Below the pieces are notes generated by a model that searched no databases, was not told where the DNA came from, and worked only from the letters and a program-made list of their open reading frames with translations. The translations under genes and the position numbers were made by a program. A stretch of 64,000 nucleotides of DNA from Planctomycetaceae bacterium (GTDB taxonomy: Bacteria > Planctomycetota > Planctomycetia > Pirellulales > Pirellulaceae), in the NCBI GenBank assembly GCA_947463915.1, contig CANHVO010000004.1, positions 2,022 to 66,021 on the forward strand, written 5' to 3'. Numbering within the stretch: the first letter of the stretch is position 1; each line of letters opens with the position of its first letter. Below are positions 7,345 to 49,020 of the stretch, one piece after another.

Positions 7345-8352
7345 TTATCTCACAAGTGTTTCGCTGGCCTTTCCGTCGAGCAATCGTTCCACTTCTTGTC
7401 TAGAAATCAAAGGCAAGTCGCCCGGAATGCTGTATTTCAGGCGAGCTGTTGCGGTTGCCCACTGAAGCGATCTCCGCAAATCTTGCTTTTCCAACCAGGC
7501 GGAAAGAAACCCGGCCGAAAACGAATCGCCTCCGCCAAGCCGACCAATCGGTTCGACGGGTTCAATCGATTTTGTTTCGCAATGGTTCGCATCGCTCGCC
7601 ATGGCACCGCGCGTTCCTAGTGTCATGACAGTTGGTCGGCCTGACCGCATCGCTACCAGTTGCGACATTGCACGTTCGTCGCTCAATTCTCCACTGATGC
7701 CCCATAGATTGTTGGCATCTCGTCGAGGCAAAAATACGAGGTCCGCAGATTCGAACAGGGACTCACTGTATTGCATCGCCTGTTTGGCACTACAAAGCAG
7801 CGATCGATGGTTTACGTCAAAACTAATTTGCCAACCCACCGATCTTGCCCGCTTTACCGCGTCTGCGACCGTTGCTCGTACCGAATCGCTCAGCCACAGC
7901 GAAATGCCTGTAATGTGCAACCACTTGGAATTCAGAGGAGCAAATAGGTCTGATGGTAAATCGCTTGGCTGGATTTTTGAAAAGGCAGAATTCGCACGAT
8001 CGTAAATCACCTGGCTGTTTCTGGGTGGAGTGCCCGCTTCTAAGAAATACAACCCGACGCGGTCGTTGTTCGTCCATACAACATGCCTGGTGCAGACTCC
8101 ATGCGCGGCGATTGCCCGTTCGACTTTTCTCCCCAAGTGGTTGTCGGTCATCCTGGATAACCATGCGACTCGTTTCCCAAGTCGTGAGAGACCGACGGCT
8201 GTGTTCGACTCGCTCCCGCCGACATGCACTTGTAAACTTTCAGCTTGCTCTAGGCGAAGATTGCTATCTGGGGTCAATCGCAGCATTGTTTCGCCCAAAG
8301 TGACGACATCCCACTGTGTTTCCGAAGATTGATTGTTGGGTGTTGAATTCAT
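7345..8352 (-). CDS. kdgK: PfkB-family sugar kinase, probably 2-keto-3-deoxygluconate kinase
   Basis: GGSESNTAVGLSRLG and GGGDSFSAGF PfkB signatures; ATGA-coupled to eda. Confidence 0.8.
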   Translation of the reverse strand: MNSTPNNQSSETQWDVVTLGETMLRLTPDSNLRLEQAESLQVHVGGSESNTAVGLSRLGKRVAWLSRMTDNHLGRKVERAIAAHGVCTRHVVWTNNDRVGLYFLEAGTPPRNSQVIYDRANSAFSKIQPSDLPSDLFAPLNSKWLHITGISLWLSDSVRATVADAVKRARSVGWQISFDVNHRSLLCSAKQAMQYSESLFESADLVFLPRRDANNLWGISGELSDERAMSQLVAMRSGRPTVMTLGTRGAMASDANHCETKSIEPVEPIGRLGGGDSFSAGFLSAWLEKQDLRRSLQWATATARLKYSIPGDLPLISRQEVERLLDGKASETLVR

Positions 8353-8999
8353 GCTGCATTGCGATCCAATTGGCTGGCTTTCACATATTCAGAAGCGGTT
8401 TGGATTAGTTTGTTCCAATCCTTGTTTTGAATGGCGATCGGATCAAGCAATTGGCTACCAATACCGACGGCTACTGCTCCGGCTGCAAAAAAGGTCGCTA
8501 TGTTCTTTAAGTCAACGCCGCCTGTCGGCATGAGTTTTAAGTACGGCATGGGAGCCAGCACATCTTTGATATAGCCCGCCCCCAAAGTTCTTGCGGGAAA
8601 CACTTTCACGATATCGGCCCCAGCATCCCAGCACGTTGCAATTTCGGTTGGGGTGTAAGCTCCCGGGCAGACCGCAACTTTGTTTTGCTTGCAGTAATCG
8701 ATAATCTGAACAGAGGTAATGGGCGAGACTACAAATTGTGCTCCACTATCGATCGCAAGCTTCGCTTCTTCGAGCGAACGAACAGAGCCTATGCCGACGA
8801 CCGCTTTTTGGGACGTAATCGCTTGGTGGGTATCTCTCATTTTTCGGACCACAGCTGGTGCGGCTGCATTTGTCAGTGTGAACTCGAGAGCCCGAACGCC
8901 CGCCTGAAACAATGCGTTGGTGATCGGAAGTGCCGTCGATAGGTCATCCAACCTAAGAATAGCGACTAGGCGGGCGTCGAGGATTGTTTCAATGGTCAT
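8349..8999 (-). CDS. eda: KDPG/KHG aldolase
   Basis: LVAILR, ALEFTL, GAQFVVSP, PGAYTPTEI, VKVFPA and LMPTGGV motifs. Likely start ATG 8999; the ORF track extends to 9143. Confidence 0.92.
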   Translation of the reverse strand: MTIETILDARLVAILRLDDLSTALPITNALFQAGVRALEFTLTNAAAPAVVRKMRDTHQAITSQKAVVGIGSVRSLEEAKLAIDSGAQFVVSPITSVQIIDYCKQNKVAVCPGAYTPTEIATCWDAGADIVKVFPARTLGAGYIKDVLAPMPYLKLMPTGGVDLKNIATFFAAGAVAVGIGSQLLDPIAIQNKDWNKLIQTASEYVKASQLDRNAA

Positions 9000-9171
9000 C
9001 GTTGCGATCAGGTTCCTGTCGGCCGAATAGCTAGCGAAAGAAGTTGGAAAGATTTGCTGATTGTATCGATTGTACCGGCCGATACAGAACAGCAGAAGGA
9101 CGGTTTGCTCCAGGTCGGGGCGACGAATCCGTTTGTTTTGCATGCCAGCAATTCTTCAGGGGCGCATTGTT

Positions 9172-9909
9172 ATGAAAACTGCATTGTTCGGATGGCTATT
9201 TGGATTTGGACTGTTGATAAGCCATGTCGGCTGCTGCTCCGTTCGTTTTGTTGGCGATGGCTGCGGCATGGGAGCATGCGGTGACATTGATTGCGAAGTA
9301 GGAGGCTGCGGCAGTTTGCGTTCACGAGTTGCCAATCGAATTCGAAGCGCCCATTGCAGCTCGGGTTGCGGGGAAATTTACTGGGACGAACACATTAACG
9401 AGCCACCCGTGTGCGATCCTTGCGGCTGCAATGGTGAGTTTGAGTGCGGATCGTGCGGTAGCTGCCCAACGGCGCTCGGGCGTTTGAAAAACTTGTGGGG
9501 ATATCGATACATGCCCTCCAGTTGCGGCGAATGCAATTCATGCGGATTGACTTCGAATCACGGCGGCTCAAGCTCGTGCGCAACATGCGCCAGCAACACG
9601 CAATCTTCCTACTCTTCGAATGATCACATGTCGTCGCACAGCGAAATGATGTCATCTGAGCCAGTTGAGAATTCGGTGATAAAGCGTTCCCCAACCCCAG
9701 CCAAACCGAAACAAGCCCCCGCTCCTAGCGTTGCTCCTAAACCAACTCCCGATGCCAATGCGATGCATATGGAGGAGGTTTCGACGGAACGACTTGTCAT
9801 CGGAAGCGGCGCATCGAAAACTAGGAAAACGACAACGGCTAGACCTGTCTCGACCAGTTTGAAGCCGTCCGGCCAAGGTAAGCCAAGGCTGGTAACCAAC
9901 CCTCGCTAA
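9172..9909 (+). CDS. Cys/Gly-rich exported protein, possible lipoprotein
   Basis: Signal-like N-terminus ending HVGC; 19 Cys in residues 21-139; Ser/Pro/Lys-rich tail. Likely start ATG 9172. Confidence 0.7.
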   Translation: MKTALFGWLFGFGLLISHVGCCSVRFVGDGCGMGACGDIDCEVGGCGSLRSRVANRIRSAHCSSGCGEIYWDEHINEPPVCDPCGCNGEFECGSCGSCPTALGRLKNLWGYRYMPSSCGECNSCGLTSNHGGSSSCATCASNTQSSYSSNDHMSSHSEMMSSEPVENSVIKRSPTPAKPKQAPAPSVAPKPTPDANAMHMEEVSTERLVIGSGASKTRKTTTARPVSTSLKPSGQGKPRLVTNPR

Positions 9910-40800: not shown

Positions 40801-40844
40801 AATCGCTTGCGATGTTAAAAGCGTGGGTCGCTGAAATCAAGTAG
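37833..40844 (+). CDS. CBM9-like sugar-binding domain + glucose/sorbosone (PQQ-type) dehydrogenase + diheme cytochrome c fusion
   Basis: IDGSDEDAAW/TRARLLWD/NDVFEIF (CBM9-like); HNGAALTFGKDG, WAYGLRNPWR, GANYGW (GSDH propeller); CMVCH and CAYCH heme motifs. The ORF track GTG at 37785 lies in a repeat. Confidence 0.85.
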   Translation: MRILRCTSNHFYRSALAIWIALFVSAGFAAFADDLVCHWADVPILIDGSDEDAAWKNATVIDRFRIPASNDPIPRAATRARLLWDRQYLYFFAELEDRDLFADVNEHDGKTWDNDVFEIFLKPSREATGYYEFQINAAGTKMDMFLPDQKSGGYNSLKSSDSFHWKTQVRRDGTLNQRGDRDHSWTVEGRIPWLDLMPTGGRPDIDEVWQLALCRYDYTLNTQPELSSCAPLTKLDFHRCEDYATVRFAPASEINATAHALRHRPHFADTLVAGSPEPPLPYRAVRAYPDLKLEWPIDVQVEPGSKRLIVIEEQGAYGPTKIMRTTDASNQTELELLFDPKGVAYSIAFHPNFLENGFMYIGSNGKNEGEKHKSHIVRRTLARTAPFGLVGDEMVVIDWESNGHNGAALTFGKDGMMYVTTGDGTSDSDANVVGQDLSKLLAKVLRIDVDHPSPGRSYSVPKDNPFSNVANSVPETWAYGLRNPWRITTDAKTGHIWVGNNGQDMWEQVYLIERGANYGWSVFEGGHPFYSKRQLGPTPHVLPTVDHPHSEARSLTGGVVYYGDKLPELRGAYVYGDYSTGKIWAIKHDGTAIVWHREIADTPFQISAISVDVNGELIVVDHRGDKQGGLYHLELVPSDSKPNRFPRFLSETGLMQNMPQHQVERGLIPYSVNAPFWSDGALKSRYIALPTDGQIEIPDQWAWQFPDKTVIVKSFALEHVAGDPASKHWIETRLLVKEQGEWVGYSYAWNKEQTEAELVAAGGRDEDFSIVEPDGVRTQRWHYPSRTECMVCHTRAAGYLLGLTTVQMNRQQDYGNGLKSNQLDALESMGVLKTNWMTHAQDAMRAQMAVEGHSKEKIESELSKLKPMAGQRTVKTNGMMGKMGGENRKLVDPHDTSSNLEQRARAFLHSNCAYCHVEAGGGNAKMNLSYYAELEQMNIVGVEPIHHHFDKSDAKLIAPGSPDRSVLLHRVGIRGPGQMPQLSTNLVDQKSLAMLKAWVAEIK

Positions 40845-42159
40845 CTTGAGCGGCTGGCCGTCGGAGTGTTGCGAATAACGGATTAGTTCGATGGAGGACT
40901 CGGCTTTCCCGAATCGCGATTGCGAGAACAGCACCTATCCCAAGCGTGACCAGGATATCTTCCTTGGTCGCTAGTTCCGCCGATTCTTGCGAATCAAAAC
41001 CAACTCCGATTGCCGATGGTGCTTGCGCATCGGACTCGCTACGCGACTGGACCATATTGGTGGAGCCGATGAACAATTGAAGGACTTCAAATGGATTCGT
41101 ACTTGCCTTTGAGACTACACCTAGGCGTTGCGAGTTTGCCGCTTGATCGCGAATTTCAATCATTCCTTTCGGAACGGGCAAACGTTTTGCGTTGACGGCC
41201 AACTCATCGATAATGGACTCGACTTGAGCTCTTTGAATTTGCCTTAAGAGCGCTTCGCTTTGCTGTTGAGTTCGTAGTAGTGAAGCTTTGGATTGAGTGC
41301 CATTGGGCCGATTTAATTCGGCTCGAAGACTGCCGTCCATTGCGAACGTAAGCATTCCATCTTTCGTCGGTTTAGCAGATTCTGTATTGGCGCCGATGAC
41401 CTGACTCGTTTGAGTTAGACCTTTCGCATTCGATGAAACCGAGGCAAGCTCGTTCAAAGATGAATTCGATTGCAGCACGCTAACTTGAGGAACAATTGAA
41501 ACGGGATGGAAGTCACGTTTCGAGTTCAAGTTGTCCGAGAGAGGTGACGCGCTGACTGTTCGAATTGCGGATGAATTGACTAAGTTGCTCGATTGTGCTT
41601 GCAATGAAAGTGGCTTCGTCACGCTTGACTCTGGCCTCGAAACACTTTGGTTTTGTCCAGTGCTAGCAGCGGATTGTTGCGAGTTTTGCTTCACCGCAGC
41701 ACTAACGCTCGACTGTGTTGCCGATAGGGTATGCGGAGTTACCGATACAATGGGTGGTTCAGAGCCGCGGACTTGTGCGGATGGTTTTACCTGAAGTTCA
41801 CCCTCCGCGAGGGTGTTTCCTGGGCTATGGGACGGTGGAGGTTGAGTTGGATGTTCTGCCCTCCCCGCGTCTTCTCCCTCACCGGTCATTTTCCCTAGGG
41901 ATGGATGCGCATTAAAACGGACGAAATCGTATTTCGGCAAAAAGCGGTAAGCCGGAAGCTGCTGAATTCCGATCTGCTGAATCTCGACGGAGCCAGACCG
42001 ATTCGCAAAGATTACGGTGCGTACCTCACGGCTTGGGCCATCATTTCTTGATGGCGATTCGAATCCGATCAACCTGAATGGGTAAGAATCGCTATTCAAC
42101 GCAATGCGGGCGTCCAGTTGCTCGAACGAGAGGTGGCGTTTCGACTTTTGGCGGACCAT
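40837..42159 (-). CDS. Low-complexity Ser/Gln-rich protein with planctomycete extracellular leader and C-terminal TM
   Basis: RHLSFEQLDARIAL leader from ATG 42159; C-terminal ILVTLGIGAVLAIAI followed by a basic tail. Confidence 0.65.
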   Translation of the reverse strand: MVRQKSKRHLSFEQLDARIALNSDSYPFRLIGFESPSRNDGPSREVRTVIFANRSGSVEIQQIGIQQLPAYRFLPKYDFVRFNAHPSLGKMTGEGEDAGRAEHPTQPPPSHSPGNTLAEGELQVKPSAQVRGSEPPIVSVTPHTLSATQSSVSAAVKQNSQQSAASTGQNQSVSRPESSVTKPLSLQAQSSNLVNSSAIRTVSASPLSDNLNSKRDFHPVSIVPQVSVLQSNSSLNELASVSSNAKGLTQTSQVIGANTESAKPTKDGMLTFAMDGSLRAELNRPNGTQSKASLLRTQQQSEALLRQIQRAQVESIIDELAVNAKRLPVPKGMIEIRDQAANSQRLGVVSKASTNPFEVLQLFIGSTNMVQSRSESDAQAPSAIGVGFDSQESAELATKEDILVTLGIGAVLAIAIRESRVLHRTNPLFATLRRPAAQAT

Positions 42160-42255: not shown

Positions 42256-44811
42256 CTACAGCGAAGACAAGTTCGCTTGGATTTGTTTTAGAACCCCGGA
42301 CTCGTTCGAATGTTCTGGCAAGAGCTTACATACACGTTGTTGGTATTCGCTCGCCTTTCGAAAGGCATCGGTGGCTGATCTTTTGTCACCGTTGCTTTTC
42401 ATCAATACGCCGAGATTGTTCCACATACCTGCTGCGCGCTGGGCAGCACCAGCGTCATTCAAATCGGAATCCGCTGCTGTTCCTGCGATGGAAATTGCCC
42501 TTCGAAACGCAGCGTCCGCGTCACTCTTTCGGGCTAGCGACGAACATGCCATGCCGAGATTATTCAGGCTGATCGAAAGCTCACGGCGCGGGGCAGACGA
42601 GGGTGACGCAAGAGCGCTCACTCGATCGAAGTGCTCAATCGCTTGCTTGTACCATTCAATCGCCTCACGAGTTCTTCCGTTTCGAAAGAGGGCAGAGGCA
42701 GAGTTATCGCAGGCCAAGGCCAATCGCAGAATTGCCTCCGGAGTTTCTTTTCTTTTGACCGCTTTTTGTCGCAAAGCCAAGCCCTGCGCTGCGGCCTTTT
42801 CGGCTGGTTCAGGTCGACCAGCCTCGCCAAGCAGAACAGAAAAATTGATCAGAGTATTCGCGAGGTAGTCGTCTGCGATTTCATCTTGCTCCCCAGAGTC
42901 CGACGACGCTTTGGTTTTTTCGTTACTTAAGCCTTCGAGGATGACGATTGCTTCGGCGCTTTCTTGGATCGCCTTCTCGATTTCTCCTCGACGAAATGCG
43001 ACCATCGCTTGAGTGTGGTGTGAGAGAGCTTTGGCTCGTGCGCGACGATCCGAATCAGGTATCGAGTCTGCGATGCCGTTGGCTTCGTTTAGCAATGCCT
43101 TGCTAAATTTTTGGTCCCCTTGGTTGCTTCGAAGAAGCACCCATTCATGAATCGCCAAATGCAGGGTCGAGGCGATCCCCGAGTTAGTATTATCCCTGTA
43201 GGCAACGCGTAATGCTGTGACTGCGTCGCGATAAGCCGCGTCCGCTTCATCGACGCTGCCGAGGGTCTGAGTGAGCCTCGCAATTTTCAGCGTGGTGTCT
43301 GCAACATCGATAGCAAGCCGAGGATCGTTGTTAGCAGACGCGATAAACAACTCGTAGTAACCTAGCGTTTCATCGAGCAGTTCGCGACGCAGTTTTTCCG
43401 TACCAGAAAGCTGGCTCAAGCGTTCGGCGAATCTCAGGCCAAGAGTGTCCACGGCATCGCGGGCCTGCCTGTAATGCAAATCCGAGGAGCGAAGGGCAAG
43501 TTCGGTCGATCGCTTTTCGTTCCCCATCTGAAAATTGAAAGCGCTAAGGACCATGATCGCAACCATTGAAACCAGCAATGCCACCGCGATTCGCCCCGAA
43601 TGGATGCTGGTCCAATTCTTAGCTCGTTCGCCGAAGCTAACCGTATTGGCCAAAATTGGCTGCCCAGTTGAAAACCGAAGCAGATCTTCTGCAACCAAGG
43701 CAGCGGACTGGTAGCGATCGGCTCGCTCAGGTCGCATGGCCCGTCGAATGATCGTTTCAAGGTCTCGAGGTAAATTGCGATTGTATGCCGCAGGTCTCAG
43801 CGGCTCTGAAGTTTGGATGCGACTGAGTATCTCGCCTCGCGCCATTCCGCTAAACGGTGAGTGCCCCGTAAAGAGTTCGTAAAGCGTGGCTCCCAGGCTA
43901 TAAATATCGGAACGGCAATCGATCCGCTCGCGTTTGCCGGAAGCTTGCTCGGGACTCATGTATTGGAATGTGCCAATAATGTCGCCAGAGTATGTCAGAT
44001 GGAGTCCGTCCTCAACATGCGCCAAACCAAAATCGGTTATCCAAACATGGTCCGAGGAATCGATTAGCAGATTGGACGGCTTGATGTCTCGATGAACAAT
44101 ACCCATCGTATGGGCCGCGTGCAACGCGTCGGCCACATTTGCCATCTCTTTAGCCAACGTTTGGTAAAACTCAGCTCCTGACGGAGGTGTCGCTACTGAA
44201 TCGGCGTCTCGATGAAAGGCTGCATCGATGCGTTGCGATAGCGAAGTGCCATCGATCAGCTTCATTGTGTAGTAGTGTCGGCCGTTGTCGCAACCTATGT
44301 GATAGACCGGAACAATGCTGGGGTGATTCAATGATTCTGCGGCTCGAGCCTCGCGGCGAAAGCGTTCGATGGAACTTTGGTTTCTCATTCCTTGAGTTTC
44401 TAGGAACTTGATCGCAACCTCGTTCCCCATGGGCTCTTGCGTGGCTGCATAGACAACGCCCATCGCTCCGCGCCCAAGCTGACGCCCTATCTGAAAGCCA
44501 TCCACGCTTTGCGATGGGCTCAAGCCTAACGATTCCGTTGTCCCTCCGATATTCGATTCGCCGGTTCCCTGCACGCGATTTAGCATTCGAATGCTCTCGA
44601 GGGAAGATCGAAGCGGGCCAGCAAGTTCTGGATACTCGGCAACAATCGATTCGACCGACGGACATCGCCCATTCTCGAGATCGACCAAATAGCGATCCAA
44701 GATTAAAACAACTCGGTCTTGCGTTTCCGAATCCAATCGATCTATCCAGTCCGTGCCCGAAGGCTCGCTAAATCTGTTCAGATTGAATCCTTGTTTGGGT
44801 GGATGACTCAC
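42256..44811 (-). CDS. Ser/Thr protein kinase with TM and TPR-like repeats
   Basis: LGRGAMGVVY, VAIK, HRDIKPSN, DFG, GTFQYMSPE; TM; helical repeats. GTG start overlaps the sigma stop codon (GTGA). Confidence 0.93.
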   Translation of the reverse strand: MSHPPKQGFNLNRFSEPSGTDWIDRLDSETQDRVVLILDRYLVDLENGRCPSVESIVAEYPELAGPLRSSLESIRMLNRVQGTGESNIGGTTESLGLSPSQSVDGFQIGRQLGRGAMGVVYAATQEPMGNEVAIKFLETQGMRNQSSIERFRREARAAESLNHPSIVPVYHIGCDNGRHYYTMKLIDGTSLSQRIDAAFHRDADSVATPPSGAEFYQTLAKEMANVADALHAAHTMGIVHRDIKPSNLLIDSSDHVWITDFGLAHVEDGLHLTYSGDIIGTFQYMSPEQASGKRERIDCRSDIYSLGATLYELFTGHSPFSGMARGEILSRIQTSEPLRPAAYNRNLPRDLETIIRRAMRPERADRYQSAALVAEDLLRFSTGQPILANTVSFGERAKNWTSIHSGRIAVALLVSMVAIMVLSAFNFQMGNEKRSTELALRSSDLHYRQARDAVDTLGLRFAERLSQLSGTEKLRRELLDETLGYYELFIASANNDPRLAIDVADTTLKIARLTQTLGSVDEADAAYRDAVTALRVAYRDNTNSGIASTLHLAIHEWVLLRSNQGDQKFSKALLNEANGIADSIPDSDRRARAKALSHHTQAMVAFRRGEIEKAIQESAEAIVILEGLSNEKTKASSDSGEQDEIADDYLANTLINFSVLLGEAGRPEPAEKAAAQGLALRQKAVKRKETPEAILRLALACDNSASALFRNGRTREAIEWYKQAIEHFDRVSALASPSSAPRRELSISLNNLGMACSSLARKSDADAAFRRAISIAGTAADSDLNDAGAAQRAAGMWNNLGVLMKSNGDKRSATDAFRKASEYQQRVCKLLPEHSNESGVLKQIQANLSSL

Positions 44812-45425
44812 GACGCACTCTCGGAAAGATAAGCAGCCCGAAGTCGGTTAATCGCTCTCAGCCATAACAATCTAACAGCCTGTGGCGAACGATTCATGTG
44901 CGCTGCGATTTCGTCGAACGGTAGTCCGCCAAAGTTGCGCAGGGCAATGACCTTTTGATAGTCTTCGGAGAGCATCGCGACGTAATCGGCAACCCTTAGC
45001 GATTCTTCTTCCCCAGAGACGATTTGGCTGGGCGACGCTTGATTGAGCGCGAGAAAATTCCCCATTCCAACGCAGCTCGATTCAAGACAGGATTGAATCG
45101 CATCGATTGAAACTTCTCGCCGAACATCTCGTTTGCCAGCCTTCACGTTATGCTCGATTGCGCGGAGCAAGCATCGGGATAGGACGGTTCTTAGCCAAGA
45201 GCTGAACTCTGCTTGCGTTGTCCCTTGGAAGTCCCCTAAATCGCGGTGGGCGGCAAGCATGGTGTCCTGAACAATGTCAGATGGGCTGACGCGTTTTCCG
45301 ACTGGCCGTCCCATTTGCGAAGCGGCAAGCACGCGCATGTAATTGCGGTACGGCTCTAGCAAATCACCCACTGCTTCCGAGGCTCCTGATCGAGCCGCAG
45401 CAATTTTCGAAGCAAAGTTCGTCAT
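44808..45425 (-). CDS. ECF sigma-70 factor, TIGR02984 (Planctomycetaceae subfamily 1)
   Basis: GDLLEPYRNYM, KRVSPSDIVQDT, DFQGTTQAEFSSWLR, KRDVRREVSI, LLWLRA. Confidence 0.92.
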   Translation of the reverse strand: MTNFASKIAAARSGASEAVGDLLEPYRNYMRVLAASQMGRPVGKRVSPSDIVQDTMLAAHRDLGDFQGTTQAEFSSWLRTVLSRCLLRAIEHNVKAGKRDVRREVSIDAIQSCLESSCVGMGNFLALNQASPSQIVSGEEESLRVADYVAMLSEDYQKVIALRNFGGLPFDEIAAHMNRSPQAVRLLWLRAINRLRAAYLSESAS

Positions 45426-45652
45426 GAATCACACACGATTCTCACCCGGAAAACCTCCGAAATCGAAAAAACTCACGAAGACCCAATGCCCAACGAAAAC
45501 GATTGATTCGGTAGTTTAGTATACTCCAGTTGTCGGTTGGATTCACGGTTTTGGTGGGTGTTGTAGGCTGCGTTGGTGTTGGCGTTTTGGTCACCGGTGG
45601 GGTTGTTACTACTGGTTGGGTGGTAGAGAGGACATCTCGCTCTCGCTTTTTG

Positions 45653-45766
45653 AGGTTGCACACTTGTGTTTTCGTAGCAGAATTCGTGAGAATTCTGGCC
45701 GCGTATTGATTGCAAAGAGTCTGAATTCTCACGAATTCAGCTACATTTCTTGATACAGTGCAACCT
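45653..45766. mobile_element. Non-autonomous MITE-like element with 9-bp terminal IRs enclosing a GTAG REPIN
   Basis: aggttgcac...gtgcaacct ends; internal GTAGCAGAATTCGTGAGAATTCTG...CTGAATTCTCACGAATTCAGCTAC at 45674-45744. Confidence 0.6.
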
Positions 45767-45767
45767 A

Positions 45768-46694
45768 CTACCGACGCGCTCGAATGGCGGCCGTTAAAGG
45801 TGTTTTCGATTTACCATGTTCGCGACCTTCATCATGATCTCTTCCGTTCCCAACACCAAGTCTCTGAACCGTGTTACCGCCGACAATCGCATCGGCCCCA
45901 ACGGTCACTTGATCCGTCGATGTTTTGGACCTCACTCGCAAATCCCCAGCAATTTCGCCCGAATGAGTTAGCGTGTTATCGCCTGCCCCCAAAGAAGCCA
46001 AAACGCTACGTCCAACAAAACCAGTTGTTTCGACGGTTACTATGTCATTGCCGTCGCCTGCTTTCAATACGAGGCTCTGTTCGATGGCCCCGGCAACACT
46101 CACTGTGTTATCGCCTTTGCCCAGACTCAAGCCCGCGGATTTGCCGATCGTCGCTTCAGCAAGAATGGTAATCGTGTCTTTATCGCCCCCCCCAGAAACG
46201 AGAAGACTTCCCGCTATGCCGGCTCCGGTTTTCAATGAATTCGAGCCGTCGCCAAGCATCGCGTAGACATTTCGCCCCACCGTCGTCCCCGCTGCAAGCT
46301 CTAGATCGTCGCGGCCACTTCCTCCCTTGTAGCTCATGCTACCCTTGATGCTACCAGTCGCAAGCACCAACGAGTTGTCGCCACCACCTAGATTGGCCAT
46401 CACGCGATCTACGCTTGCCCCATCCAACTTGAGCGTAACGACATCGTTCGCCGTACCAGAAGTGTCGAGATTGATGTTGATGGACTTTACGCCATCAAAC
46501 GTACCGATTGAAATTCCATTATCCGTGACTTCGATTTGCGAACTGCTCTTGGCAACAATCTCAACGGGGCCATCCGAGTCGCCAGTGACTTTGAGGAGAC
46601 CATTTTCAACTACGGAGGCGACCGCGAGGAGTTTTCTGGACTCAAGTTGCTCGATGCTTTGAAAAAGTGGTGTTTTGCGGCGAAGTTTTGTCAT
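45768..46694 (-). CDS. Secreted beta-rich repeat protein with planctomycete extracellular leader
   Basis: SIEQLESRKLLA leader from ATG 46694; Gly/Asp-rich repeats (LGxGDNxL, GxGxDxV), like a beta-helix or beta-roll. Confidence 0.75.
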   Translation of the reverse strand: MTKLRRKTPLFQSIEQLESRKLLAVASVVENGLLKVTGDSDGPVEIVAKSSSQIEVTDNGISIGTFDGVKSININLDTSGTANDVVTLKLDGASVDRVMANLGGGDNSLVLATGSIKGSMSYKGGSGRDDLELAAGTTVGRNVYAMLGDGSNSLKTGAGIAGSLLVSGGGDKDTITILAEATIGKSAGLSLGKGDNTVSVAGAIEQSLVLKAGDGNDIVTVETTGFVGRSVLASLGAGDNTLTHSGEIAGDLRVRSKTSTDQVTVGADAIVGGNTVQRLGVGNGRDHDEGREHGKSKTPLTAAIRARR

Positions 46695-46934
46695 TTTCGA
46701 GTTCCTGCTAAGTCTTGTTTTTTGAGAACAGAAAGCATCCATGCCAGAGAAGCGTTCCATAGTTCAGAAGGACGAAAAGCCGGAAAAGTGTTTCGGCATC
46801 AGCAAAAGATTTCTGTATTCCTTTGTAATGCTTGCATCTGTTTCGAGAAGGAACTCGTATTCTCCATGGAAGACGCGAGTCGCGAGGTTCGGATGCAAAA
46901 TGTTGTTTCTGCGAGAAATGATTCTTTCCACACC

Positions 46935-48866
46935 ATGCTTTCATTCACAAAGCTGTCGAAAACGGCAATGCAATCATTCTTTCTTGCCTGCAGTTTTGGC
47001 TCGATTCAAGCGGACGAATGGTCTCAATATGGTGGTCCCGCTCGAAACTTCTCGGCTAAGTCTGTGAGTCAGGAAAAATCCATCGCTGCCAATTTCTGGC
47101 GAATTCCGATGGTTGGTGGGGACGCTGCCGCCGTCGTGCATCAAGATCGTATCATCGTTTCAAGTGTCGAATTTGAGCCCGATGGGACCGACGCTCACCG
47201 AGTCATTTGCGTTGAACGGGGCAGTGGCAAAACGCTATGGGATCAGTTTTTCCAGGAAAACAGTTTCCTGTCGCAGGATATCAGTGAGCGATATCCCGTT
47301 CGCCCCATTTCCACGCCATGTATAGTGGGCGATCAGGTTGTTCATTGCGGCTTCGGTGGCTCAGTGCGAAGTCTGAGCCTTGCCTCTGGAAGCCAAAATT
47401 GGTGCGTCGACTTGGTCCATGATTTTAGCGCTAACCCGATCCAATATGGATATGCTTGTAGCCCCTGGAGCGACGGAAAGCAAGTTGTCGTAGCGTGCGG
47501 CGGCGATCAAGCGTTGTTGCTATCGCTTAACCTAAGCAATGGAAGTCTTAACTGGAAATGCGGTTCGGGTTTGGCCTCCTACGCCTCTCCGATTGTGATG
47601 ACAACCGTCGAGGGAGTCGAACGCGTACCGACAAACCATCTCGTCTATGCGGCTGGAGACAAAGTGATCGGAGTTGATCCGAAAAATGGGAACCTACATT
47701 GGCAATACACCTATCCTTCGCCTGGGCTCACCAACGCAGCGACTCCAATTTCCGTTGCTCCTGGCAAACTCCTCATTGGTGGCCAAGGTGTGAATGGAAC
47801 GCGACTCCTCTCGATTGCACGAAATGGAGATAGCTATTCTGCTACCGAAGTTTGGCACAACTCCAAGCTCTCACCATTTTATTGCAATTGGCTGCAACTC
47901 CAAAGCGTCCCAAATTGCGTCATAGGATTTATGGGCAAGACAATGACCGCGTTGGACTGGACGACCGGCGAAGTTTACTGGCAGAAGCGAGGTTGGACGG
48001 ACACCAATGTGGTTAACGTGAACGATAAACTGTTAGCTGTACGAGGAGATGGATTCGTAGGGCTAGTCAAGGCCGACGAAAAGGGACTTGAATTGCTGGC
48101 GGGAGATAACAGCATTCGAGATCGAGTGTGGACGCCGCCTACTGTGGTCGATCAGCAAATTCTACTAGTCGGTCGAAGCGGACTCGTTAGCTTGCCCATT
48201 GGCCAGCTTCAAAAGATGGCTGAAACACCATCCGGAAGCGAGGTGACTTCGATGGACGCAATGTACGGAAGTCGTCCTGAACGTATCCAGAAGTTGATTG
48301 GACAATCCAAAATCGCCAACCGTTTTACGATCGAGGACTATCGTAACGTTTCGTCAGACAAAACCGCTCAGATCAGTGAAGGCGATACCTCAGCGATCAT
48401 AAAAAACCTCCTTGCAAACCAAGAAACGAGCATCGCATTGGCCGTTGCGACCGATTGGGTTCGTGAATCGCCACATTCGATTCCCGCCTGGGACCAATAC
48501 TTGGACTTGCTTCGAGTTTCAGGGAAAGGAGAGCAGGCCGATATAGAGACCAAAGCTCGAATGGTTGATGTACGGATCGAAGTCGCTTTGCCCCCATCGA
48601 GCCAGTCACCTGGTAACATCTACTTGATGGGAAATGCGAGATCGATCGGTGCTTGGAATCCGATGGAAGTGCGACTTCAACCAACGGTCGATGGGAAGTA
48701 CGGTGTGTCATGCCAGTTGCCACGTGGCGACTTCCAATTCAAGTTCACAGGTGGCAGCATTGACACCGTCGAAGTTCGTAGCGATGGAAGGAGCATATCG
48801 AATCGACGCCACCGCATCACAGCCCCAACGACATTAAATGCAACGGTTCAAGCTTGGAAGAAGTAA
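46935..48866 (+). CDS. PQQ-binding-like (BamB-type) beta-propeller protein with C-terminal CBM20-like domain
   Basis: DEWSQYGGPARN, SGLASYASP, RVWTPPTVVD; C-terminal IYLMGNARSIGAWNP...FQFKFTGGS...VEV resembling CBM20. Start uncertain; the ORF track gives 46536. Confidence 0.72.
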   Translation: MLSFTKLSKTAMQSFFLACSFGSIQADEWSQYGGPARNFSAKSVSQEKSIAANFWRIPMVGGDAAAVVHQDRIIVSSVEFEPDGTDAHRVICVERGSGKTLWDQFFQENSFLSQDISERYPVRPISTPCIVGDQVVHCGFGGSVRSLSLASGSQNWCVDLVHDFSANPIQYGYACSPWSDGKQVVVACGGDQALLLSLNLSNGSLNWKCGSGLASYASPIVMTTVEGVERVPTNHLVYAAGDKVIGVDPKNGNLHWQYTYPSPGLTNAATPISVAPGKLLIGGQGVNGTRLLSIARNGDSYSATEVWHNSKLSPFYCNWLQLQSVPNCVIGFMGKTMTALDWTTGEVYWQKRGWTDTNVVNVNDKLLAVRGDGFVGLVKADEKGLELLAGDNSIRDRVWTPPTVVDQQILLVGRSGLVSLPIGQLQKMAETPSGSEVTSMDAMYGSRPERIQKLIGQSKIANRFTIEDYRNVSSDKTAQISEGDTSAIIKNLLANQETSIALAVATDWVRESPHSIPAWDQYLDLLRVSGKGEQADIETKARMVDVRIEVALPPSSQSPGNIYLMGNARSIGAWNPMEVRLQPTVDGKYGVSCQLPRGDFQFKFTGGSIDTVEVRSDGRSISNRRHRITAPTTLNATVQAWKK

Positions 48867-49020
48867 GGATTGAAATCGTAGGCTAGTTGCGATGGTCAGG
48901 CACTTGGCCCTCGAATGTCTGATGCACAACTGTTAAAATCTTGGTTTGCGTATCAAATTCCTATCTAACCAAGCTTCTCAGTTCTCTCCCTCCTACAACC
49001 GTAAAGGCATCGCATCCATC

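Follow-up and report, generated by a model that had tools for sequence, protein, structure and literature searches.

In the window, i.e. the whole 64-kb stretch of DNA analysed here, the features below read as an operon-like minus-strand string of an ECF-type promoter, a gene for a secreted repeat protein, the dead remnant of an M10 protease gene, a sigma factor gene, a kinase gene, and the gene of a protein here called X:

46771-46794, minus strand: ECF-type promoter, with the -35 element GAAAC at 46790-46794, a 15-nt spacer, and the -10 element CGTC at 46771-46774
45768-46694, minus strand: upstream secreted-protein gene, whose 308-aa product is rich in Gly/Asp repeats and starts with a planctomycete leader
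45627-45750, no strand assigned: copy of a palindromic dispersed repeat (MITE/REP-like, ~105 nt), which marks a deletion
45442-45626, minus strand: remnant of a Peptidase_M10 gene, its 3' end of ~60 codons with a Pro/Thr linker and a DWSIL..NRFRW..FRRFSG tail
44808-45425, minus strand: ECF sigma factor gene (205 aa, TIGR02984 subfamily), from the open reading frame list and family matches
42256-44811, minus strand: receptor-type Hanks Ser/Thr kinase gene (851 aa), from Pfam and NCBIfam matches
44563-44730, minus strand: pre-kinase three-helix module (kinase residues 28-83), from an AF2 model
40837-42159, minus strand: gene of protein X (440 aa), directly downstream of the kinase gene

The sigma factor and kinase reading frames lie at the coordinates given in the preliminary description of this DNA and share, as it claimed, a GTGA overlap at 44808-44811 (...GCG TCG TGA / GTG AGT CAT). 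No anti-sigma domain is found by Pfam or NCBIfam in the genes neighbouring the pair.

According to Pfam, the sigma factor matches Sigma70_r2 (PF04542) and Sigma70_r4_2 (PF08281/PF04545), and among the NCBIfam models it is recognized by TIGR02937 (60.7 bits, cut-off 42.9) and TIGR02984 (200.7 bits, cut-off 183.75, with model positions 1-186 of 189 covered). Having regions sigma2 and sigma4 only within ~200 aa, it is an ECF (sigma-70 group 4) factor, and it is a member of TIGR02984 (Sig-70_plancto1, Planctomycetaceae-specific sigma-70 subfamily 1), a family whose definition is silent on kinases and phosphorylation. The residues V46-S47-P48-S49-D50-I-V-Q-D54 are encoded at 45290-45264, with the Ser49 codon TCT at 45279-45281, and in HMMER alignments SPSD falls on D-V-P-D of E. 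coli RpoE and E-A-Q-D of AlgU, i.e. on the DxxD/DAED site of region 2.2. Ser49 hence takes the third position of this acidic motif, where it had been placed earlier; in the same alignments this position is non-acidic in the canonical ECFs too (RpoE DVPD, AlgU EAQD).

Both Ser49 and Asp50 are kept in 120/120 of the closest sigma homologues, down to 44% identity, and the conservation of Ser49 is far from chance. Ser106 (45108-45110, sigma2-sigma4 linker) is kept in 119/120, and the first motif position is acidic in 0/120. Ser49 in the SPSD of region 2.2 and Ser106 in the linker are accordingly listed here as candidate phospho-acceptors. As for Ser47, a helix N-cap accounts for it better than the earlier reading of a Ser-Pro site: the homologues have S, G, N, T, or D here, all preferred N-cap residues, and Pro and a capping Asp come next. 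In this large Pirellulales subfamily (TIGR02984), a non-acidic N-cap residue takes the place of the first acidic residue of DxxD, and the third position appears to be an invariant Ser. Among the 13 TIGR02984-like sigmas of the genome, nine have Ser at the third position, three have Ala, and one has Cys, with Ala or Cys standing there in three kinase-linked paralogues, and the three more typical ECFs of the same genome that were compared have Glu (DAED, EAED, QSED).

Regarding the kinase, Pkinase (PF00069) covers residues 106-373 with an E value of 6.8e-43, and TPR families match over 650-780 (Pfam). The catalytic motifs are all intact (GxGxxG at 113, VAIK at 132, HRD at 240, DFG at 260, and SPE at 286), and the combination of a Pkinase domain with GxGxxG, the VAIK Lys, HRD, DFG, and APE/SPE identifies a Hanks-type Ser/Thr kinase. 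The domain (106-373) is followed by a membrane helix (402-430), the only hydrophobic segment of the protein, and by a helical/TPR ectodomain (431-851), with a topology predicted from sequence as N-in, TPR-out. The earlier suggestion that the TPR region past the membrane acts as a sensor agrees with this layout: the TPRs do sit past the sole membrane-spanning segment, which makes a sensor facing outward plausible. A terminator-like hairpin at 42260-42277 was rejected, its stability being no greater than that of shuffles.

Ahead of the kinase domain, the AF2 model (good for residues 21-80) shows a module of three helices (28-46, 53-59, and 61-83; pLDDT 82-90). The module is carried by 12/75 Hanks kinases of the genome and is almost restricted to sigma-adjacent ones: 10/12 carriers have a TIGR02984-like sigma no more than 400 nt away, versus 1/63 sigma-adjacent kinases among those without the module. 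This association suggests a docking role. In Pfam the module has no match, a Foldseek search against PDB returned nothing below E 2.7, and a profile of the module run against PDB sequences gave spurious PPR-repeat matches only.

The pair had been described as module 2, with a gene order reversed relative to another kinase/sigma pair, module 1. In this genome, however, 12 of the 13 TIGR02984-like sigmas adjoin a Hanks kinase, and sigma-then-kinase is the order in 9/12 modules, so that the present arrangement is the standard one and module 1 the odd one. Modules 1 and 2 are old paralogues (sigmas 23% and kinases 35% identical). The proposed reusable cassette of two understates the case, as the locus is one of at least 12 modules in the genome and the planctomycete expansion has already been described. 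Nothing sets the locus apart within a planctomycete signalling family that is already known, in which a receptor kinase at the membrane would activate its own alternative sigma factor by phosphorylation, and which has about a dozen paralogous modules in this genome, that of a freshwater Pirellula-like planctomycete. The kinase gene follows the sigma gene in 13/14 relatives compared (L011 excepted) and in 18/20 further Pirellulales genomes, the pairing recurs in three cultured species (of Aureliella, Roseiconus, and Adhaeretor), and the 4-nt sigma/kinase overlap is retained both within this genus and in other families of the order.

The promoter GAAAC-N15-CGTC sits 77 nt ahead of the ATG at 46694, a start codon backed by orthologues of the upstream gene in L001 and L006, two of the seven close relatives (L001-L007). 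The pattern AAACA-N14-CGTCC has a single match in the window (0.11 expected), and the promoter motif stands before the cluster's first gene, once per locus, in 6/7 related loci (L001, L002, L004, L005, L006, and L007) with diverged spacers; in L003 the promoter is lost and the genes are kept. A scan of the 7.6-Mb genome with a PWM built from seven promoter sites gave no second strong site, the loose pattern GAAAC-N15/16-CGTC, with 211 genome matches, is too frequent to inform, and the motif did not turn up in the more distant loci searched. We infer recognition of the promoter by the sigma factor from the general habit of ECF autoregulation. Two other candidates were dropped. A sigma promoter hidden in what is left of the protease gene's 3' end was abandoned, the conserved ECF-type promoter preceding the first gene instead (and being lost in L003), and a similarity to the stretch ahead of the module 1 DUF4114 gene comes down to CACTTTTCSG, a site with no properly spaced -35/-10 pair.

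Because the conserved ECF-type promoter precedes the cluster's first gene, the upstream secreted-protein gene is probably co-transcribed and, in this genome, probably heads the transcript. As the preliminary description stated, the two genes flanking the pair are co-directional, each with a planctomycete-type leader (...FQSIEQLESRKLLA and ...LSFEQLDARIAL), and by eye the leader motif ..E.LE.R.LL. can be recognized in the upstream protein as well as in protein X. According to PF07595 (Planc_extracel, gathering threshold 25.5), the match of the upstream protein is weak (14.4 bits, E 0.031) and protein X has none, while a distant counterpart of X in L039 reaches 16.5 bits (E 0.007) against the same threshold. 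The further claim that the sigma factor controls the flanking genes holds in part: it is favoured by the conserved promoter before the upstream gene and by the status of the X gene as a conserved operon partner, but the upstream gene is present in only 2/7 close relatives.

In the relatives, a secreted M10 protease gene is the conserved neighbour directly before the sigma gene, and its catalytic part is deleted here. The remnant aligns to the 3' end of intact protease genes (263-301 aa) in L001, L002, and L004-L007, and PF00413 matches the L001 orthologue at 123.9 bits. The reading frame at 45442-45732 is without the catalytic HExxHxxGxxH domain of Peptidase_M10, the L001 stretch being missing from the window, and a copy of the dispersed repeat stands in place of 873 bp of L001. 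This repeat has at least 37 near-full copies in the genome (89-95% identity) and an RNA fold of -41.1 kcal/mol (z -4.4). The protease gene is truncated by a repeat-associated deletion, and read-through from the upstream gene into the sigma gene could be hindered by the hairpin of the repeat that lies between them. Such a hindrance, together with the locus L003, which has the genes without the promoter, counts against autoregulation of the operon.

Protein X consists of a planctomycete leader, a Ser/Gln/Pro-rich disordered body, a C-terminal hydrophobic helix, and a basic tail, with the conserved motifs RLPxPKGMIEI and NPFEILQLFIGSxNMV. The AF2 model is essentially disordered (mean pLDDT 43.8). 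X follows the kinase in 7/7 close relatives, with an identity of 74-76% in L001 and L002 and only 28-35% in L003-L007, where the sigma factor is 79-90% identical. Aureliella, Roseiconus, and Adhaeretor have counterparts of like architecture whose genes overlap the kinase stop by 4 nt, and a reading frame resembling X is found in 10-14/19 further genomes. An HMM of the close X family recovers only one distant X, by its leader, and all-against-all BLAST of the X proteins joins small groups only. Across families, X thus defined appears to be a matter of conserved position and architecture, not of proven homology. Taken as such, X looks like a fast-evolving, membrane-anchored third protein usually following the sigma/kinase pair.

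In comparison with characterized systems, the pair most resembles those of group ECF43. Phosphorylation of a Thr at the third motif position activates EcfP and EcfK (PMC8999054, PMC13147305), and EcfK T51A is still functional (PMC13147305). ECF43 members have uncharged residues in place of the region 2.2 DxxD, with Thr third (QTTA/STTA; Thr in 88% of members), and PknS begins with an N-terminal extension of ~83 aa with 3-4 predicted helices, after which come the kinase domain, a membrane helix, and TPRs in the periplasm (PMC13147305). Like EcfK/PknS of Xanthomonas citri and EcfP/PknT of Vibrio parahaemolyticus, the window sigma has no anti-sigma and stands beside a transmembrane Hanks kinase, whose gene overlaps the sigma stop codon. 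The window kinase shares with PknS a helical N-terminal extension (~80-100 aa), a kinase domain, one membrane helix, and outward TPRs. The sigma factor shares with EcfK and EcfP a hydroxyl residue at the third DxxD position, and with EcfK a conserved linker residue, Ser106 lying 57 residues after Ser49 and EcfK T106 lying 55 after T51. The window motif SPSD, however, differs from that of ECF43 in having Ser and an invariant fourth-position Asp versus STTA, QTTA, or QATE. PDB chain 9eed ('Kinase domain protein', 364 aa; E 3e-26), presumably PknS(1-364), is no closer to the kinase domain than PknB is (E 2e-49). Also in contrast to ECF43, for which no third gene is described in the literature searched, protein X follows the window pair, and the phylum is different.

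ECF59, ECF60 (original), ECF61, ECF62, and ECF217 are the planctomycete kinase-associated ECF groups, as reportedly described in Jogler 2012 and Casas-Pastor 2021. By description the locus is like them: a planctomycete ECF that lacks an anti-sigma and has a Ser/Thr kinase as its conserved neighbour. None of these five groups has been tested experimentally, according to PMC8999054. For the kinase-linked ECF59 and ECF60, Ser at the ECF43 phospho-Thr position is reported by reviews citing Iyer 2020 (PMC8103513), and in this they agree with the window sigma, where this Ser is Ser49 (120/120). In the literature searched, kinase-linked planctomycete ECFs with Ser at the motif are already known, and a protein X after the pair is not described.

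By its sequence, the pair bears every hallmark of a kinase-regulated ECF sigma: it has no nearby anti-sigma gene, an intact receptor Hanks kinase that is translationally coupled, and an invariant Ser in the region 2.2 motif. We consider it probable that the sigma factor is switched on by its partner kinase via phosphorylation of Ser49, perhaps also of Ser106, and then transcribes its own operon. The kinase TPR ectodomain would take an envelope or outside signal, possibly via protein X, and the kinase would autophosphorylate. Its N-terminal three-helix module would hold the cognate sigma, on which Ser49, perhaps with linker Ser106, would be phosphorylated; the added negative charge would tighten sigma binding to the beta-prime clamp of RNA polymerase. 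The holoenzyme would then transcribe its own operon from the GAAAC-N15-CGTC promoter, and this autoregulation would give more sigma, kinase, X, and upstream secreted protein. Phosphorylation of Ser49 itself is suggested by the motif and its conservation. As Asp50 is retained, the sigma factor may have basal activity without phosphorylation, by analogy with EcfK with the QATE motif (PMC13147305).

It is unlikely that the three-helix module instead sequesters the sigma factor at the membrane, with phosphorylation of either sigma or module setting it free and no charge on Ser49 needed for RNA polymerase binding. The specificity of the module to sigma-adjacent kinases and the lack of a separate anti-sigma gene would suit such a tether, and the charge of Ser49 may indeed be dispensable, because Asp50 is kept and the third position is non-acidic in the canonical RpoE and AlgU. 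However, Foldseek gives the module no significant match, anti-sigma or other (best E 2.7), the PDB sequence profile search yields spurious PPR repeats only, and the invariance of Ser49 (120/120) is left unexplained, while in the EcfP and EcfK systems the kinase activates by phosphorylation (PMC8999054, PMC13147305). Very unlikely is a sigma factor that is constitutively competent and controlled by transcription only, beside a kinase with other substrates, their adjacency reflecting a shared regulon. Retention of Asp50 and replacement of Ser by Ala or Cys in three kinase-linked paralogues speak for this, but the 4-nt overlap, implying translational coupling, is conserved from the genus to other families of the order, 12/13 paralogous sigmas adjoin a kinase, the pre-kinase module is specific to sigma-adjacent kinases, and ECF43 provides a precedent for coupling. 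It is extremely improbable that regulation rests with protein X, as an anti-sigma factor in the membrane which the kinase inactivates: X does come directly after the kinase in most relatives and has a single membrane helix, but acidic residues before this helix and Arg-rich ones after it place only ~20 residues on the cytoplasmic side, not enough for a sigma-binding domain, its N-terminus is an export-type leader and not an anti-sigma domain, and it is predicted to be disordered, with no Pfam match. As for the favoured activation by phosphorylation, the observations that run against it are the retained Asp50, the non-acidic third position of RpoE and AlgU, the Ala or Cys of the three kinase-linked paralogues, and the function of EcfK T51A (PMC13147305).

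A wider scheme, which we consider quite unlikely, would make the kinase-linked ECF pairs of Pirellulales three-part devices (four-part in some lineages), in which the disordered, anchored ectodomain of X serves as ligand or brake of the kinase TPR ectodomain, and its cleavage or displacement, by outside proteases or by the co-encoded secreted M10 protease, fires the kinase and hence the sigma factor. No mention of X as a third component of ECF-kinase pairs was found in the literature searched.

Planctomycetes have dozens of kinase/ECF pairs per genome. Direct phosphorylation of sigma factors as a means of bacterial gene control was established only recently and, to our knowledge, has been demonstrated by experiment in just two or three systems, all of them proteobacterial. 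The locus brings no new principle to it, and is a clean, well-populated test case for kinase-linked sigmas, with an invariant Ser49, a near-invariant Ser106 (119/120), a defined candidate promoter, and cultured relatives carrying the same three-gene operon (Aureliella helgolandensis, Roseiconus lacunae, and Adhaeretor mobilis). The recurrent protein X hints at a sensory-side partner missing from current accounts of ECF-kinase pairs, and, if the X-gated device were true, a eukaryote-like kinase would have a receptor gated by proteolysis, following an RseA/DegS-like logic with unrelated parts.

The gene string around module 2, the ECF sigma and Hanks kinase pair, consists of the following elements, given in transcription order.

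45768-46694, minus strand: secreted-type repeat protein, 308 aa, first gene
Between repeat-protein and sigma genes: spacer of 342 bp
44808-45425, minus strand: ECF sigma, 205 aa, with Sigma70_r2, r4_2 and TIGR02984 matches
45108-45131, within the sigma gene: near-invariant linker motif R-D-x-R-R-E-x-S (residues 99-106; 120 homologues)
42256-44811, minus strand: Ser/Thr kinase, 851 aa, with Pkinase and TPR matches
40837-42159, minus strand: protein X, 440 aa, last gene

The coordinates and the motif V46-S47-P48-S49-D50-IVQD reported in the preliminary description are exact, and in the window sequence the sigma stop and the kinase GTG start share a GTGA overlap. In addition to Sigma70_r2 and r4_2, the sigma matches TIGR02984 ('Planctomycetaceae-specific subfamily 1') with 200.7 bits (cut-off 183.75). 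As for the kinase, its Pkinase domain (residues 106-373) has all catalytic motifs intact. After it come the only hydrophobic helix (402-430) and a helical part with TPR matches over 650-780. From the charges flanking the membrane helix, the kinase domain is predicted on the inner side and the TPR region on the outer side.

The source genome (7.6 Mb, 618 contigs, 99% complete; nearest to lake 'Pirellula sp.' MAGs) encodes 13 strong TIGR02984-like sigmas, 12 of which are adjoined by a Hanks kinase. The sigma-then-kinase order is found in 9 of these 12 modules, the opposite one in 2 (including module 1, the other pair in the window), and a divergent one in 1. Thus, the order of module 2, initially described as reversed, is the norm. 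Modules 1 and 2 share 23% identity between sigmas and 35% between kinases, and are distant paralogues.

HMMER alignments to solved ECF sigmas pair SPSD with D-V-P-D in E. coli RpoE and with E-A-Q-D in AlgU, which makes Ser49 the third position of the region 2.2 DxxD patch. This patch (DAED) touches the beta-prime clamp, and its third position is the phosphorylated Thr in EcfP of Vibrio (STTA) and EcfK of Xanthomonas citri (QATE), both of which are activated by phosphorylation (PMC8999054, PMC13147305). The ECF classification already includes kinase-associated groups (ECF43, ECF59-62, ECF217, ECF267, and ECF283; PMC7826278), and a Ser in the matching position has been reported for planctomycete ECF59 and ECF60 (PMC8103513), so the locus belongs to a known kind. 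By the motif criterion, the sigma is not a member of ECF43. Across the 13 TIGR02984-like sigmas of the genome the third position is Ser in 9, Ala in 3, and Cys in 1. The only TIGR02984-like sigma with no kinase within 6 kb (contig C8:10584-11237) reads DYAD, with no Ser, and three more typical ECFs inspected in the same genome read DAED, EAED, and QSED.

Ser49 and Asp50 are kept without exception in the 120 closest homologues from a 5.8-billion-protein collection, which reach down to 44% identity. In these homologues, position 1 of the motif varies among S, G, N, and T, with no acidic residue, and position 2 is mostly Pro. S, G, N, and T are residues favoured as helix N-caps, followed here by Pro at N1 and a capping Asp at N3. 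By the general rules of helix capping, S47 would be the N-cap, which accounts for this residue with no need of a Ser-Pro phosphosite. Ser49 is the invariant that capping leaves unexplained, and Ser106 is the second such residue, kept in 119 of the 120 homologues at the end of the linker motif. It lies 57 residues after Ser49, compared with the 55 residues that separate T51 from the second essential phosphosite T106 in EcfK (PMC13147305); by this analogy Ser106 is a candidate second phosphosite. Ser49 is likewise a candidate, although the retained Asp50 and the canonical ECFs that are uncharged at this position leave the need for phosphorylation in doubt.

The kinase layout resembles that of PknS of X. 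citri, in which the kinase domain is preceded by an 83-aa N-terminal extension (3-4 predicted helices) and followed by a membrane helix and TPRs in the periplasm (PMC13147305). AlphaFold2, run with an alignment of 13 orthologues, places helices at 28-46, 53-59, and 61-83 with pLDDT of 82-90. An HMM of this three-helix module was trained on ten of the genome's sigma-linked kinases and run against its 75 Hanks kinases. Twelve of them carry the module, 10 at no more than 400 nt from a TIGR02984-like sigma; among the sigma-adjacent kinases a single one is without it. These ten matches are training members and positive by construction; the informative part is the 62 unrelated kinases left unmatched, which argues for a role of the module in docking or holding the sigma. 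The fold has no significant match in the PDB, giving no backing for anti-sigma kinship. Carriers include C2:7576-10329, C174:7092-9539, and C64:1877-3997, as well as C238:2018-4321 and C1:8586-13607, which have no TIGR02984-like sigma nearby. The kinase may activate the sigma, or may act only as its tether.

Protein X combines a putative PF07595-type leader, the planctomycete 'cell-surface' leader (PMC8567305), with a Ser-, Gln-, and Pro-rich body, the conserved motifs RLPxPKGMIEI and NPFEILQLFIGSxNMV, and a C-terminal hydrophobic helix. Acidic residues before this helix and Arg-rich ones after it imply that X would be mostly outside the membrane, with a tail of ~20 residues inside. It is predicted to be disordered (AlphaFold2 mean pLDDT 43.8) and has only 17 homologues in the big protein collection. 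All seven close relatives (L001-L007) have X after the kinase; it is just 28-35% identical in L003-L007, where the sigma is 79-90% and the kinase 63-67% identical. Aureliella helgolandensis, Roseiconus lacunae, and Adhaeretor mobilis each have an orthologous sigma (45-52% identical), after which come a kinase-TPR gene and then a 388-449-aa gene with no Pfam match, both junctions overlapping by 4 nt. The third proteins of these species have the leader and C-terminal anchor in common at only 15-18% identity, and homology of X is not detectable between families. In 20 further Pirellulales genomes the kinase follows the sigma in 18; the next ORF, examined at 19 loci, has the leader motif in 14 and leader, C-terminal helix, and basic tail together in 10. 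Separately, P0126, a 610-aa protein from a 3.5-kb JGI metagenome contig, fuses the orthologous kinase N-lobe (to ~residue 230, before HRD) in frame to X, being either a deletion variant that occurs in nature or an assembly chimera. In the distant relative L015, the gene after the kinase (7902-9212) has a PEP-CTERM-like end (VPEPSA, hydrophobic helix, RHRR) and a dockerin-like segment.

Of 15 related loci fetched, 14 were checked for kinase position, and the kinase follows the sigma in 13 (the exception is L011). The upstream repeat-protein gene is present in only 2 of the 7 close relatives. An intact secreted Peptidase_M10 gene (263-301 aa) that stops 17 nt short of the sigma start is found in 6 of them (L001, L002, and L004-L007); the L001 product matches PF00413 with 123.9 bits. 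Besides a planctomycete leader, the protease has a Pro/Thr linker and a basic-aromatic tail. An M10 gene directly upstream of the sigma also occurs in Aureliella, and at none of the sigma loci of the 20 further Pirellulales genomes. In the window only the last ~60 codons of the M10 gene remain (45442-45626; remnant ORF 45442-45732, counterparts L001:1899-2711 and L003:5481-5984). The 873 bp lost here have given way to 124 bp (45627-45750), which represent one copy of a ~105-nt palindromic dispersed repeat (core GCTGAATTCGTGAGAATTC ... GAATTCTCACGAATTCAGC). This repeat has at least 37 near-full genome copies (89-95% identity) as well as many partial cores, and looks like a MITE/REP-type element. 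The copy in the window marks the 873-bp deletion. L003 lost the same M10 part independently via a different deletion, and the operon promoter with it. L001 and L002, the two closest relatives, lack the PQQ/BamB-like beta-propeller gene that lies at 46837-48984 on the plus strand. Indels are concentrated in the stretch upstream of the operon.

A candidate promoter, TGAAACA-N14-CGTCC (46771-46794), has classical ECF -35 and -10 elements separated by 15 nt. It precedes the first gene of the cluster and is the sole match in 64 kb (0.11 expected). It lies 77 nt ahead of the ATG at 46694, which settles the start of the repeat-protein gene. The motif occurs exactly once per ~12-kb locus, always before the first gene and with diverged spacers; this gene encodes the repeat protein in the window, L001, and L006, and the protease in L002, L004, L005, and L007. 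A genome-wide PWM scan gave no second strong site, so no wider regulon is visible. The proposal that the flanking genes are output of the sigma gains support, of a positional kind only, from the probable single transcript starting at the candidate promoter. Since ECF sigmas usually autoregulate (PMC7826278), one autoregulated transcript from this promoter through sigma and kinase to X is the likeliest arrangement.
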